A DNA stretch of 64,000 nt from an uncultured Alphaproteobacteria bacterium (lineage in GTDB: Bacteria > Pseudomonadota > Alphaproteobacteria > Rhizobiales > Xanthobacteraceae): contig CAWBQV010000005.1 of assembly GCA_963790975.1 (NCBI GenBank), positions 124,948 through 188,947 on the forward strand. The letters run 5' to 3'. Of the stretch, positions 1,789 to 55,350 are shown one piece after another (the first letter of the stretch is position 1; every line of letters begins with the position of its first letter). Under the pieces are notes generated by a model. It worked only from the letters and a program-made list of their open reading frames with translations. It was not told the DNA's origin and ran no database searches. Position numbers and translations under genes: made by a program.

Positions 1789-1817
1789 GTAGGGGCGGGT
1801 TTCAAACCCGCCCCTAC
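1789..1817. terminator. perfect 11-bp hairpin between convergent prx and rnhA (GTAG-leading, REP-like)
   Basis: GTAGGGGCGGG (1789-1799), loop TTTCAAA, CCCGCCCCTAC (1807-1817). It overlaps the rnhA stop codon at 1814..1816. Confidence 0.55.
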
Positions 1818-2273
1818 GAAAGCCGCCCACGAATTTCCGCGATCGCCTCTTGCACAAGTGCATCGGCGCGCTCGTTGAGGTCGTGACCCGAATGGCCACG
1901 CAGCCAGTGCCAGCGAATTCTGATGCTGGCCGAGTGCGGTCTCGAGACGCTGCCACAGATCGACATTCTTGACCGGCTTCCTGTCCGCGGTGCGCCAGCC
2001 GTTCTTCTTCCAGGTCTTGATCCAGGACGTGATGCCGTCGCGCAGATATTTGCTATCGGTGTGCAGGTCGATCCGGCATGGTCGCTTGAGCGCTTCGAGC
2101 GCGGAGATCGCGGCCATGAGCTCCATGCGATTGTTGGTGGAACTGGCTTCGCCGCCCTTGAGCTCCTTCTCGTGATCGCCAAAGGACAGTATCGCGCTCC
2201 AGCCGCCCGGACCCGGATTGGGCGAGCAACCACCGTCGGTATGAACGACAACGTGCGGCAGTTCGGTACTCAC
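1814..2273 (-). pseudogene. rnhA: ribonuclease HI, reading frame interrupted by one extra base (probably a sequence artefact)
   Basis: GTG start at 2273 overlaps the thrB stop (GTGA). Track ORF 1704..2456 gives [24 protein letters not shown]...[16 protein letters not shown]...[18 protein letters not shown]. The RNase HI C-terminus [22 protein letters not shown] continues in the frame of track ORF 1814..2251. The switch is at GAATTC 1915..1920. Length is 460 nt = 3n+1. Confidence 0.85.
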
Positions 2274-8370: not shown

Positions 8371-8634
8371 CTAAAAATCCTTGCTGTCGAGATCGTAGGA
8401 GCCTTTGCGGCCGCGCGAATAGACTTTGATCGCGGCGGCGTAAATCCGGTCGCGATTCATATCGAAGGCGTTGAGCAACCCTTTTTCGTCGCGGTTAATA
8501 TTCGGCTGAATGCGCTTGAGCGCCTCTTCAGTCACGAAAAACGACGTCTCCATCGCACTGTCATGTCCCCAGAACCGCACAGCATGCCGCGTCGGATCGT
8601 ACGAGCGGCTTGGATTTGGGAAATTCAGCGGCAT
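8371..8634 (-). CDS. DUF1488-like protein
   Basis: MPLNFPNPSRSYDPTRHAVRFWGHDSAMETSFFVTEEAL resembles DUF1488 proteins. Start taken at the internal Met (8634) so it does not overlap the upstream ORF. Confidence 0.6.
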   Translation of the reverse strand: MPLNFPNPSRSYDPTRHAVRFWGHDSAMETSFFVTEEALKRIQPNINRDEKGLLNAFDMNRDRIYAAAIKVYSRGRKGSYDLDSKDF

Positions 8635-8642
8635 CGCGGCAG

Positions 8643-8934
8643 CTACTTGGCCGCCGCCACCGGCACTTCCACCATGGTCGTTTGACAATCGATGCTGTCG
8701 TAAACGGAGACCTGAACGAGCGGGTAGCCGGTCTTGATCGTCGTTCCGGCCGCGACCGCGGTTTCAGCCGTGGTGTAGGATCCCTTGGTCTGCCGGTCGA
8801 CCTGGAGCAAATACCGGCCGGCCTCGGGCCGCCGGCGTTGCGACAGATGCTGCTCGACCGGCTCGGGAGCAGGATCGCCCGACGACTGCGCCGAGTCGTT
8901 CGAACTCGGGCAGCTTCATCTTTCGCGCCATCAT
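8643..8934 (-). pseudogene. small conserved-looking hypothetical ORF, frame interrupted by one extra base
   Basis: Frame 1 gives MMARKMKLPE. After dropping one T of GAGTTC (plus-strand GAACTC 8902..8907) the frame reads SNDSAQSSGDPAPEPVEQHLSQRRRPEAGRYLLQVDRQTKGSYTTAETAVAAGTTIKTGYPLVQVSVYDSIDCQTTMVEVPVAAAK through to TAG at 8643..8645. Length is 292 nt = 3n+1. Confidence 0.4.
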
Positions 8935-37821: not shown

Positions 37822-40219
37822 GTGTTGCAATTAATCGGACACGGCAAGCCGCTTCGTCTGACGATCCGGCGCGTCGCCGCGATGTCAGTGCTTGCGATCG
37901 TGGCCCTAGTCGGCGCGCTTGTGAAAAGCTCCGCGCAAGACGCCAACACTCCGGCGACAACGCCCACCACATCTCCATCCGCAACGTCTCCGGCCGCAAC
38001 GTCTCCGTCAACCGCGGCTCCGCCCACGACGCCTCCATCCGCAACATCACCGTCTGCCGCGCCGGCCGGAGGACACCTGCCACAGATCGTGGTGACCGCA
38101 CCGAAGAATAAGCAAAGGCCAAAGGCGACCGCCGCGGCGCCGCCACCGCCGCAGCAACCAGGCGGGCCAACGCCCGCGCAGGCGGCTCTGGACAATAAGA
38201 TGACGGGGCTCGATCAGGCGCGGGACAATCTGCTGCCGAAAATCGGCGCCTCGACTTACACCGTCAGCCGCACCGCGATCGAGAGAATGCCCCAAGCCGA
38301 CAACACGCCGATCGACAAAATCATTCTGCAGATGCCGGGCGTGTCCTACGATTCGGCGGTCTCCAATCCTGATTTCCACGTCCGCAACGAATACGCCAAC
38401 GTGCAATTTCGGATCAACGGCGTCGTTGTTCCCGAAGGCGTTTCCGGCCTCGGCCCGTTTATCGACACCAATTTCATCGGCAGCATGTCGCTGCTCACCG
38501 GCGCGCTGCCCGCCGAATACGGTCTGCGCACCGCCGGCGTGCTCGATATCACGAGCCGGGCATTTGCCGAGCCGGGTGGCGACATCAGCGTCTATGGCGG
38601 CAGCCGGCAGACATTTACGCCGAGCTTCGATTACGGCGGCAGCTTCGGCAACTCCGAATACTTTGTCACCGCGCGCGGCAATTGGAGCGGCCTCGGGCTC
38701 GAAAATCCGACGCCGAGCTTGAACGCGAATCATGACGACACCCAGCAAGGCAAGTTCTTCGGCTATGCCTCGACGCTGCTCGACGAATCGACCCGCTTCA
38801 GCGTGATCACGGCCGCGTCTTACAGCGCGTTCCAGATTCCGAATAATCCGGGCCAGATGCCGCTCGGCGATTTTCCCTTTGGCGCGGCGGTGACAAATTT
38901 CGATTCAACGACGCTCAACGAAAACGAATACGATTCTTACTACGTCACCATGGCAACGCTGCAAAAGCACGGCACCGATGGTGATGCGCAGCTTGCGGTC
39001 TTTTCCCGCTATGCCGAAGTTCACTTCGTGCCCGATATATTCGGCGACATGGTGTTCAACGACGTCGCCTCCGACGTCATCCGGCAAAGCACGCTGACCG
39101 GCATGCAGGGCGACGCCTCGTATATCGTGAACAACCAGCACACGCTGCGCGGCGGGTTCGCGGTGAGCGGCGAGCAAACCAACGTCACCAACGTTTCCAC
39201 CGTCATGCCCGGCGATATCGGCGCGGTCACGGGACCGCCGTTCAACGTTACCGATCAAGCCTCGCTGCTCGGCTGGAACATTGGCACCTACGTCCAGGAC
39301 GAATGGAAGCTCACCAACCAACTAACGCTGAACATCGGCCTGCGCTTCGACCAACTGTATCAGTTCGTCGATGCCAACCAGCTCAGCCCGCGCTTCGGTT
39401 TCGTCTACAAGCCGTTCGAGGGCACCAGCTTTCACGCCGGCTACGCGCGTTATTTTACGCCGCCCTATCAGGCGCAGGCTACGCAGTCCAACATCGCGCT
39501 GTTCGCCAACACGACCAATCAGCCCGACATTTTCCAGGCGGATCCGGTCAAGCCCGAACGCTCGCACTATTTCGACGCCGGCATCGACCAGACGGTGCTG
39601 CCCGGCCTCGATATGGGGATCGATGCCTATTACAAGATGGCGAAGGACATGATCGATGACGGCCAGTTCGGCCAGGCCGTAGTGTTGACGCAGTTCAATT
39701 ATGCACGCGGCTACAGCGAGGGCGCGGAGTTCAAGCTCAAATATCACGAAGGCAACTTCTACGCCTATGCCAACTTCGCCTACAACATAACCCGCGCGAT
39801 CGACGTGGAGTTCGAACCAGTATCTCTTTGACGCCGCGACCTTTGCCTATTTGCAAAATAATTATCACTACACCGACGACATGCAGCGCATGACCGGCTC
39901 GGCCGGCGTATCGTACCGTTTCCCCGATACGACGGTGGTGACCGCAGACATGATCTACGGCAGCGGTCTGCGCACGGGGGATTTGTCCGACGGCGTCGAT
40001 CCTAACTCGGAGCACACGACGGCCTATGCCGTGATCAATACCGGCATCTCGCATGACTTCCGCTGGGCGGCCAATGCCAAGCCGGTCACCGTGCGGTTCG
40101 ACGTCGTCAACCTGTTCGACCAGGTCTACGAGCTTCGCGACGGCTCCGGCATCGGCGTGTTCGCGCCACAGTTCGGCCCGCGGCGCGGTTACTATATGGG
40201 CCTGTCGCAAAAGCTGTGA
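37822..40219 (+). pseudogene. TonB-dependent receptor, frame interrupted by one extra base (probably a sequence artefact)
   Basis: Track ORFs 37822..39831 and 39851..40219 are the two parts of one receptor (plug motifs, and a C-terminal beta-barrel ending ...RGYYMGLSQKL). Removing one T of GAGTTC (39808-39813) joins ...ITRAIDVE to SNQYLFDAATFAYLQNNYHYTDD. Length is 2398 nt = 3n+1. Confidence 0.85.
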
Positions 40220-52604: not shown

Positions 52605-53635
52605 CAACTTTGCTCGACGTTGCCGAAGTCTCGAAAGTGTTTCCGGTCGCCGGCGGCCCGGGCGCCTGGACGCGGCTGAAGCGGCGCATCGCCGGTGGCG
52701 TCGAGAAGCTGCCGAAAGTCTATGCCGTCGACAATGTCAGCTTTACCGTCGAGCAAGGCGAGACGGTTGGCCTCGTCGGCGAATCCGGCTGCGGCAAATC
52801 GACTTTGGTGCGTGCGCTGACCCGCCTGATCGACGTCAGCGACGGCATCGTCAAGCTCGGCGCGCGCGAAGTGTCGGTCAAGCCGGCCCGCGTATTCGCC
52901 CGCGACCGCGATCGCGCCCGCATTCAGATGGTGTTTCAGGACGCCGGCGAAAGCGTCAACCCACGCTTCACCGCGTTCGACGCCATCGCCGATCCGCTGC
53001 GCCGGCTGCGCAAATTGCGCGGCAAGGCGCTCACCGAGCGCGTCGAGACCGTGGCGAGCCAATGCGGGCTGCCGCTCGCGCTATTGCCGCGTTATCCGCA
53101 TCAATTGTCCGGCGGCCAGCGCGCCCGCGTCGGCATTGCGCGCGCCATTGGGGTCGAGCCCGAACTCCTTGTGCTCGATGAGCCGACCGCGGCGCTCGAC
53201 GTTTCGGTTCAGGTCGTGATTCTTAAATTGTTGCAACGCCTGCAGAAAGAATTCGGCATGAGCTATCTGTTCGTGTCGCACGATCTTTCGGTGGTGCGGC
53301 TGCTGTGCAACCGCGTGCTGGTGATGTATCTCGGCAAGATCGTGGAATCCGGCCCGGCCGACGAAGTCTTCGAGCATCCGCTGCATCCTTATACCCAGGC
53401 GCTGGTCGCCGCGGTGCCGCGGCTGCATGACGATGGCGTCGCACGGTTGCGCCTGATCGGCGAGCCGCGCAGCCCCGTCGATCCCGATCCGAATGTGTGC
53501 CGCTTCTACGGCCGCTGCCCGCGCGGCACCGATGCCTGCAAGACCACCATGCCGGCGCTGCGCAGTTTCGGCGCGCATCAGGTCGCCTGCCATTTCGCCG
53601 AGGAATTTTTGCCGCAGCAAAAAGCCGCGTCATGA
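52601..53635 (+). CDS. ABC transporter ATP-binding protein (DppF-like)
   Basis: ATGA overlap. Walker A GESGCGKST, signature LSGGQRARV, Walker B LLVLDEPTAALD. Confidence 0.9.
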   Translation: MTTLLDVAEVSKVFPVAGGPGAWTRLKRRIAGGVEKLPKVYAVDNVSFTVEQGETVGLVGESGCGKSTLVRALTRLIDVSDGIVKLGAREVSVKPARVFARDRDRARIQMVFQDAGESVNPRFTAFDAIADPLRRLRKLRGKALTERVETVASQCGLPLALLPRYPHQLSGGQRARVGIARAIGVEPELLVLDEPTAALDVSVQVVILKLLQRLQKEFGMSYLFVSHDLSVVRLLCNRVLVMYLGKIVESGPADEVFEHPLHPYTQALVAAVPRLHDDGVARLRLIGEPRSPVDPDPNVCRFYGRCPRGTDACKTTMPALRSFGAHQVACHFAEEFLPQQKAAS

Positions 53636-53901
53636 AACGCAAGACCGCAAAAAAAGCCAAGCCGGCAAAAACCGAGCCGGCCGCGCGGCATAAGAAGCCA
53701 CCGCATAGCGCTCCCGCGCCCGCGGGGCAAGACGAAGCGGCGCTGGTGGCGGCGGCCGCGCAGGCGCTGTCGCTGACGCTCGATCCGTCCTGGGAGGCCG
53801 GCGTCACATTCAATCTGCACCTGATCCTGCGCCATGCGGCTTTGGTCGAGGAATTCGCTTTGCCCGACGACGCCGAACCCGCGCCGATATTCCATGCTTG
53901 A
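53632..53901 (+). CDS. AtzG-like small protein (DUF4089) with a basic N-terminal extension
   Basis: ATGA overlap with the ATPase stop. The C-terminal ALVAAAAQALSLTLDPSWEAGVTFNLHLILRHAALVEEFALPDDAEPAPIF matches the DUF4089/AtzG pattern as I recall it. Confidence 0.65.
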   Translation: MKRKTAKKAKPAKTEPAARHKKPPHSAPAPAGQDEAALVAAAAQALSLTLDPSWEAGVTFNLHLILRHAALVEEFALPDDAEPAPIFHA

Positions 53902-55298
53902 TACGCCCGCCGCCGATTTCGATTTCGCCACCGCGGCCGACATCGCCGCAGCGGTCACTTCGGGCCGGGCGAGTGCCGTCGCCGTGGTCGAGGCGGCGCT
54001 GGCGCGCATCCGCGAGCGCGACCCGGTGCTCAATTCGTTTACCGCGGTGACCGACGAGCGTGCGCTCCTTCGCGCCCAGGCGATCGATGCCACACGCGAG
54101 CGCGGCGAGCCGGCCGGCCCGCTCGCCGGCGTGCCGTTCGCGGTCAAGAATCTGTTCGACGTCGCCGGCCTGCCGACGCTCGCCGGCTCGAAAATCAACC
54201 GCGACGATCCGCCCGCCAGCCGCGACGCCGCTCTGATCGAGCGGCTGGAAGCCGCCGGCGCCATTCTTCTCGGCGCGCTCAATATGGGCGAATACGCCTA
54301 CGACTTCACCGGCGAGAATATTCACGACGGCCCCTCGCGCAATCCGCACGATCACAACCGCATGGCCGGCGGCTCGTCCGGCGGGTCCGGCGCCGCGGTC
54401 GGCGGCGGAACTCGTGCCGCTTGCGCTCGGCTCCGACACCAACGGCTCGATCCGGGTGCCGTCGTCGCTGTGCGGCATCTTTGGGCTTAAACCCACTTAC
54501 GGCCGGCTCACCCGCGCGCGGACGTTTCCGTTTGTCGCGAGCCTCGACCATCTCGGCCCGTTCGCGCGCAGCGCGCGCGATCTCGCGCTCGCCTATGACG
54601 CCATGCAGGGTTTCGATCCTGACGATGCCGCCTGCGCCGATCGTCCCGCCGATCCGGTGACGCCGCTTCTCGACCTCGGCGCCGACGGTTTGCGCGTTGC
54701 CGTCGCGTCGGATTATTTCAAATGCAAGAGCGGCGAGGCCTGCTACGCCATCGACCGCGTCGCCTCAGCCCTCGGCGCCAATCGCGACATCGAAATTCCA
54801 CAGGCCGAGCGCGCCCGCTCGGCGGCATTCATCATCACCGCGACCGAAGGCGCGAGCCTGCATCTCGACCGGCTGCGCAAGCGTGCGCCGGATTTCGATC
54901 CCGCCGTGCGCGACCGCTTGCTTGCCGGCGCCATGGCGCCGGCCGCGCTGACGGTGAAGGCGCAGAAATTCCGCCGCTGGTACCACGAGCAGGTTTTGCA
55001 GCTGTTCAAGGAGGTTGACGCAATTCTGGCTCCGGCGACGCCATGCACCGCGCCGTTGATCGGGCAAAAAACCTTCATGCACGGCGACGTCGAATTGCCG
55101 GTGCGCGCCAATCTCGGCCTCTATACGCAGCCGATTTCCTTCATCGGCCTGCCGGTGGTGGCCGTGCCGGTGCCGCTTTCGCCGCTGCCGATCGCGGTCC
55201 AGATCATCGCCGCGCCCTGGCGCGAGGACGTGGCGCTGCGGCTCGCGCACGCGCTCGAACGCAAGGGCGTGGTCGCAGCGATGCGGCCGGCGATGTAA
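53894..55298 (+). pseudogene. AtzE-like amidase-signature amidohydrolase, frame interrupted by one extra base (probably a sequence artefact)
   Basis: Track ORFs 53834..54490 and 54414..55298. The amidase signature GGSSGGSGAAVGGG | LVPLALGSDTNGSIRVPSSLCGIFGLKPTYGR is split at GAACTC 54408-54413. Length is 1405 nt = 3n+1. Confidence 0.85.
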
Positions 55299-55350
55299 CT
55301 TCGTCCCGCCCGCGATAGCGGGGGCTGACAATTCCATCGAGGAGATAATA

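Follow-up and report, generated by a model that had tools for sequence, protein, structure and literature searches.

Consensus errors associated with Dcm (CCWGG) are known from enterobacterial nanopore assemblies. Errors associated with Dam (GATC) are cited in a study on Brucella (PMC12392509). This study and a second one describe nanopore assembly errors at GANTC in Brucella (PMC12392509) and in agrobacteria (PMC12710330), both of them CcrM-bearing Alphaproteobacteria. According to these studies, the errors hit only some occurrences of the motif, consist mainly of substitutions with few events per genome, and are lowered by methylation-aware models (PMC12392509, PMC12710330). Duplication of an A or T at GANTC is not described in the available text of either source (PMC12392509, PMC12710330), and a literature search for PacBio-specific insertion errors at m6A gave nothing usable.

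We analyzed a stretch of 64,000 nt (C5:124948-188947), referred to as the window, which is part of a 4.61-Mb, 62% G+C, 9-contig assembly (G000). Database names on near relatives of one protein encoded in the window suggest Xanthobacteraceae. The frame breaks found here resemble the Brucella and agrobacterial nanopore errors in that they concern the same motif in CcrM-encoding hosts, lie at or next to the methylated base, affect a subset of the motif occurrences and fall mostly in coding sequence. Unlike those errors, which are described mainly as substitutions, the breaks in this genome are one-base duplications of A or T that result in +1 frameshifts, with 45 candidate sites of which at least 28 were confirmed by homology. 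The likeness to Dam- and Dcm-associated errors is that the modified base of a resident methyltransferase would shift the signal and would be systematically miscalled by an unaware model; the errors differ in motif, enzyme and usual type.

Two further comparisons concern real biology. Genuine pseudogenes, for example those of host-restricted bacteria, are also annotated as frameshifted ORFs. Genuine decay, however, involves mixed lesions, multiple lesions per gene and relaxed conservation, whereas here we observed one lesion type at one motif, with both halves of the interrupted genes matching families. Programmed +1 frameshifting (as in prfB) shares with the present cases that the full protein needs a +1 shift. 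Programmed sites are nevertheless conserved in orthologues and have a slippery or stop context, whereas here the orthologues are in frame and only the GANTC-derived hexamer is common to the sites.

Four interrupted reading frames in the window

The initial annotation had described four frame breaks in the window, each as a one-base insertion whose removal turns the site into GANTC. All four were found at the break sites listed in Table 1. Each of them is a net +1 insertion, each restores to GANTC, and at every site the would-be GANTC has its A (or the opposite T) twice.

Table 1. Coordinates of interrupted genes, break sites and other features. Positions without a contig name are those of the window.
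Feature	Coordinates	Strand	Description
rnhA (RNase HI)	1814..2273	-	two frames, one extra base
rnhA break site	1915..1920		GAATTC, one A (sense strand) extra; restored CAG ATT CGC contains GATTC
Small ORF	8643..8934	-	restored 95 aa, MARKMKLPE/SNDSAQ... (slash, break point); broken near the N-terminus
Small-ORF break site	8902..8907		GAACTC (sense-strand GAGTTC), one base extra; sense strand restores to GAGTC
TonB-dependent receptor	37822..40219	+	ORFs of 669 aa and 122 aa
TonB-receptor break site	39808..39813		GAGTTC, one T extra; restores to GAGTC
AtzE-family amidase (1-carboxybiuret hydrolase)	53894..55298	+	break inside the amidase signature
Amidase break site	54408..54413		GAACTC, one A extra; restored GGA CTC contains GACTC
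Overlap C3/C7	C3:137774-148614 / C7:27179-37982		10.8 kb; 98.6% identity; 31 gap openings
Overlap C1/C7	C1:1-4977 / C7:1-4980		5 kb; 99.2% identity; 11 gap openings
Overlap C6/C9	C6:2444-10611 / C9:161870-170025		8.2 kb; 99.3% identity; 14 gap openings
Overlap C4/C6	C4:1-6297 / C6:140112-146441		6.3 kb; 95.2% identity; 67 gap openings
Aconitase +1 insertion	C2:1022286		break at GACC[A]ATCTG or similar; non-GANTC, validated
PHO4 phosphate transporter +1 insertion	C2:284575		break within an A-run; non-GANTC, validated
~404-bp repeat, example copies	C5:12448-12851; C1:478231-478634; C2:126088-126491; C6:10208-10611		outside the window

The upstream frame of rnhA runs from ...VVVHTDGGC... through ...ALGQHQ and then turns into nonsense, and the next frame continues to the stop. 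The first frame holds up to the codon CAG and the new one sets in with ATT, which places the extra base at one of the two A's (CAG-A-ATT). Removal of one base from GAATTC yields a 152-aa protein that matches Pfam RNase_H (PF00075) over residues 8-144 (4.8e-46). In all 12 same-genus genomes with a match rnhA is uninterrupted and reads HQ[I/V/L][R/K/H]WHW at the break point, while the genome under study gives two separate matches (1-119 and 117-152). The proposal that the frame switches at GAATTC and that a one-base deletion restores RNase HI is therefore borne out by both the Pfam match and the 12 uninterrupted orthologues. These orthologues are only 72-82% identical, and GATTC is not conserved among them.

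The restored small ORF (MARKMKLPE/SNDS...GRYLLQVDRQTKGSY...) is collinear with uninterrupted ORFs in four genomes of the same genus (G011, G010, G005 and G004). A Pfam scan of the 95-aa product returned no matches; its conservation is confined to the genus and its function is unassigned. Directly downstream lies an ORF of 105 aa on the same strand (window 8371-8688; MSNDHGGSAGGGGQ...FWGHDSAMETSFFVTEEALKRIQ...), the function of which is also unassigned.

Restoration of the TonB-dependent receptor gives a protein of 798 aa, in which a single alignment to the barrel family PF00593 (residues 333-764) spans the junction. Between its signal peptide and plug domain, this receptor carries an unusually long stretch rich in Pro, Thr, Ser and Ala (window 37822-38300).

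In the restored amidase, the Pfam family Amidase (PF01425) aligned over residues 51-465 and thus across the junction. Counted from its MLDTP start, the protein has exactly 467 aa, a length shared by most of the 120 homologues listed, among which the best identity was 96%. The two nearest homologues (96% and 93%, from other populations) are in frame. In them, GGGCTC takes the place of the window's GGAACTC, and they are evidence for the reading frame but not for GANTC. Metagenome contigs were also scanned for exact matches to the allele at this site, both with the extra A and lacking it, and contained neither. For rnhA, the amidase and the small ORF, the orthologues each have a single reading frame, and programmed +1 frameshifting was rejected on this basis.

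The amidase gene lies in an AtzG-like / AtzE / AtzH-like arrangement preceded by two ABC ATPases (window 53400-55300, and L017), which is the same in the closest metagenomic relatives. This neighbourhood is a nitrogen salvage cluster of the cyanuric-acid/biuret type.

Frame-restoring hexamers across the genome

A codon log-likelihood model was trained on long ORFs, and all same-strand ORF pairs that can be fused by a single-base indel were listed. Among the stringent candidates, GAANTC or GANTTC was present within 15 nt of the inferred switch in 18 of 59 +1 cases and in 3 of 67 -1 cases, with a background of 5.6%. When the stringent set was limited to wrong-frame tails longer than 45 nt, the motif was found at 13 of 43 (+1) versus 2 of 27 (-1) switches, against a background of 7%. 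An unbiased ranking of hexamers near the ab initio +1 switches put GAACTC/GAGTTC first, with 9 observed versus 0.54 expected (p = 7e-9); overlapping words came next, and GAAGTC/GACTTC was observed 5 times versus 0.6 expected. The same ranking near -1 switches gave no comparable signal.

In a targeted scan we then asked for each hexamer occurrence whether the reading frame becomes strongly coding on both sides once the doubled base is deleted. This was the case for 48 of 24,630 GAANTC/GANTTC strand-sites (45 physical sites) and for 75 of 136,000 control sites, the controls being 16 hexamer classes with one outer or inner base changed. The excess over controls is 3.5-fold (Fisher p = 1.6e-10) and reaches ∼10-fold for GAACTC/GAGTTC. 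Expressed per 1000, frame-restoring sites amounted to 6.3 for GAACTC, 4.9 for GAGTTC, 2.4 for GACTTC, 2.1 for GATTTC, 1.6 for GAAGTC and 0.3 for GAATTC, with 0.45-1.4 for the one-base-off controls ([ACT]AACTC 0.6, GAACT[AGT] 0.45). No excess was seen when a motif base was changed or when G, N or C was doubled: the values were 0 for GACCTC and 0.36 for GAGGTC (both with N doubled), 0.43 for GGANTC (G doubled) and 0.21 for GANTCC (C doubled). The enrichment of frame breaks at GA-A-NTC / GAN-T-TC, and at these words only, matches the prediction that motif-linked breaks would exceed those at control hexamers.

The ab initio scan has a false-positive floor of ∼0.5 per 1000 hexamers, in the controls of this genome and in the same-genus genome G010 alike, and three sites in the 45-site list showed opposite-strand shadow hits. 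The motif sites are dispersed over the contigs at ∼10 per Mb. Only ∼1% of GACTC-type sites are affected, which implies that the error depends on context and does not strike uniformly.

The sequence around 37 of the sites outside the window was repaired, translated and scanned against Pfam. In 24 of these 37 restored proteins, and in three of the four in the window, a single Pfam domain alignment spans the repair point. The families concerned are UvrD_C, ACR_tran, CobT_C, DUF502, NUDIX, UDPG_MGDP_dh_N, ApbA_C, FtsX, Response_reg, DctP, HATPase_c, GDP_Man_Dehyd (two genes), MC_hydratase, ADH_zinc_N_2, Csd3_N2, peroxidase (KatG), Cytochrom_C_2, Kelch, Metallophos, DNA_ligase_A_M (LigD ligase), ZnuA, NAPRTase and HpcH_HpaI. 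Two further junctions lie between domains of one known architecture, namely trigger factor (FKBP_C + Trigger_C) and PAS_7 + MCPsignal. The rest of the 37 sites comprise shadows from the opposite strand, junctions between genes, and proteins lacking a family assignment. Together with the four window genes, this brings the number of homology-supported events to at least 28. With the exception of DctP, no second lesion was found near the junction in the Pfam-supported restored genes. True pseudogenes or gene decay were rejected as an explanation, given that there is one lesion type only and that Pfam domains align across the repaired junctions.

Assembly noise, CcrM and same-genus genomes

A BLAST search of the assembly against itself revealed that ends of contigs overlap the ends of other contigs; each overlap contains 11-67 one-base indels and has an identity of 95-99% (Table 1). 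These overlapping, indel-rich ends have the look of untrimmed long-read contigs that are poorly polished at their ends, and they reflect either such poor polishing or strain variants. Through them, C3-C7-C1, C9-C6 and C6-C4 can probably be joined. The C3/C7 overlap, where one copy has GAACTC and the other GACTC, was considered as an example of the artefact and dismissed, as the GAACTC copy has the better ORF with a proper start. This discordance favours GAACTC as the correct version, and some GAANTC sites are not errors.

Insertions of one base also occur outside GANTC, and those in aconitase, in a PHO4 transporter and, several times, in a Liv-type cluster were validated with Pfam. Aconitase is unlikely to be a true pseudogene, so its break again points to consensus error. 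Genuine -1 events were few, for example in ThiC at a run of six C's; most -1 candidates turned out to be normal boundaries between neighbouring genes (pdhA/pdhB and ruvC/ruvA, for example) and were rejected. Breaks thus cluster at GANTC above a general, insertion-biased noise, and the motif is a hot spot but not their sole source. The initial annotation had stressed that four out of four breaks lie at the motif, which holds for the window; genome-wide, the motif accounts for only about one third to one half of the real +1 breaks. The 23S rRNA gene, compared with those of three relatives, contains no single-base insertion specific to this genome, but it offers few sites, and with a per-site rate of only ∼1% this result is uninformative.

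The Liv-type branched-chain amino-acid ABC transporter cluster (C6:38900-42100) has several frame breaks within ∼3 kb, none of them at GANTC; GGCGGC[G]CTGAGC is an example. It may be a local stretch of low quality or a real decaying operon. On C1, a 4.9-kb segment that is not an rRNA operon is present twice (C1:729828-734727 and C1:784372-789289), the two copies differing by 25 indels. Relative to the second copy, the first has 87 substitutions and 22 one-base deletions, and long ORFs (728 and 395 aa) are intact only in the second copy, being broken in the first. Decay after duplication or bad polishing of this region may account for the first copy. Its broken ORFs are unrelated to GANTC, and the duplicate was set aside as an example of the motif effect.

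A MITE-like repeat of ∼404 bp occurs on six contigs, where 25 copies or more are scattered that share 99-100% identity. Its copies vary mainly by one-base indels, and GTAAGC versus GTAGC divides the family ∼14 to 8. The repeat was considered as an internal control and dropped as ambiguous, with GAAATC in nearly all copies and GAATC in one.

Contig C2 carries an ORF of 380 aa with a Pfam N6_N4_Mtase match (219 bits) that aligns end to end with Caulobacter CcrM (PDB 6PBD; 526 bits, E = 4.5e-157). Judged by this alignment, the ORF is a full-length CcrM orthologue. The 4.61-Mb genome contains 7,527 GANTC sites, and the methylated positions would make up ∼0.3% of its bases.

Two genomes of the same genus were put through the targeted scan with an unchanged codon model. 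Of G010 (320 contigs, 93% complete), 1.18 Mb were covered; there was no excess at the motif, with 5 of 6,326 test sites versus 16 of 32,180 controls. GAACTC/GAGTTC scored at 1 of 1,320 sites in this genome, whereas the rate found in G000 would give 7.4 (Poisson P = 0.005; Fisher p = 0.017). From the floor of ∼0.5 per 1000 in G010 it follows that most control hits in G000 are false positives and that the motif excess is real. A 400-kb sample of G011 (9 contigs, 74% 'complete') had 2.8 per 1000 at controls, five times higher, and 5.7 per 1000 at test sites, which is a ∼2-fold excess at the motif over a high overall frameshift rate. The signature tracks assembly type, as judged from contig counts only, and not phylogeny.

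Origin of the extra bases

In our judgement the extra bases are very probably consensus or base-calling errors at methylated GANTC, and represent neither the DNA of the organism nor gene decay. The genome-wide scan, the CcrM gene, the conservation of the interrupted genes, the noise in the assembly and the pattern in G010 agree with this explanation, which the initial annotation had already preferred, with the genes themselves intact. The assembly most likely derives from native-DNA single-molecule long reads, an origin that we infer because it has 9 contigs with untrimmed, overlapping, indel-rich ends. CcrM would methylate the adenine of GANTC on both strands (m6A), and this m6A, and not the bare sequence context, would disturb the raw single-molecule signal. 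At a minority of sites, depending on context, most reads or the polisher may then call the methylated A (or the opposite T) twice. GANTC would in this way become GAANTC or GANTTC, which within genes amounts to a +1 frameshift, and the most affected site would be GA/CTC.

The strong dependence of the effect on N and on the strand, with GAACTC and GAATTC at opposite ends of the range, is k-mer-like and would fit an artefact of sequence context as such, in which the k-mers around words like GACTC/GAGTC are wrongly modelled by the base-caller or polisher, whether the adenine is methylated or not. We regard this as improbable because the excess is gone once an outer base of the motif is changed, as in [ACT]AACTC and GAACT[AGT], because the doubling is restricted to the methylated A/T and never involves G, N or C, and because the motif is the exact target of the methyltransferase that the genome encodes. 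Moreover, published work links GANTC errors to methylation-unaware models (PMC12392509, PMC12710330). Chance alone, with random insertion errors of which four happened to fall next to GANTC-like words, draws on the fact that random +1 insertions do exist outside GANTC (aconitase, PHO4, Liv-type cluster) and that contig ends are noisy. Such a coincidence, which had been called unlikely from the start, is hardly credible when the methylated positions are such a small share of all bases. The genome-wide scan refutes it: the excess is position-specific and significant both against control hexamers and in the unbiased ranking, and -1 candidates are not enriched.

The extra bases are present in the deposited sequence, and their signature is highly specific to the methylated position, which would also be seen if they were real. 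In that case CcrM sites would be a mutational hot spot, for instance through slippage of a polymerase or of repair at m6A or hemimethylated GANTC, and dozens of genes would have been inactivated in this strain. This we hold to be very unlikely. At least 28 conserved genes, including those for RNase HI, UvrD, KatG, trigger factor, ZnuA, CobT and AcrB, would each have acquired one lesion with no secondary decay, and relatives are intact at every examined site. The fragmented same-genus genome G010 lacks the signature, the few-contig G011 is noisier still, and the assembly contains other obvious consensus errors. To our knowledge, no methylation-directed mutational mechanism of this kind has been described. 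Even less plausible to us is the specific version in which a polymerase, in replication or repair, would respond to m6A or hemimethylated GANTC by adding an extra T across from the modified A, with recent inactivation of dozens of genes in this lineage. Given the conserved genes, the other consensus errors and the absence of the pattern in G010, mutagenesis targeted to CcrM sites, which the initial annotation had named as the alternative, is possible in a formal sense only; if it were true, it would be a new kind of methylation-directed mutagenesis.

Since the breaks are almost certainly a long-read artefact, the genes are to be treated as intact and the assembly needs polishing. This result is of practical and not of biological value: in this public assembly, 28 genes or more would be annotated as pseudogenes, although they are very probably intact. 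Among them are rnhA, uvrD, katG, the trigger factor gene, znuA, cobT, an acrB-type pump gene and, from a biuret/cyanuric-acid pathway, the AtzE amidase gene. This biases the pseudogene counts, the estimates of completeness and the metabolic reconstructions obtained for this assembly and for comparable long-read assemblies of Alphaproteobacteria. An automatic rule could flag or correct +1 breaks at GA-A-NTC / GAN-T-TC in a CcrM-encoding genome. As a by-product, the signature would indicate active CcrM methylation.

The density of GANTC per Mb was 1632 in the whole of G000 and 1435 in the sample of G011, the few-contig assemblies, versus 2097 in the sample of the fragmented G010, and most control pentamers differ little between them. 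The lower density could hint at further miscalls, for example substitutions, that destroy GANTC in long-read assemblies, or at variation between species or samples.
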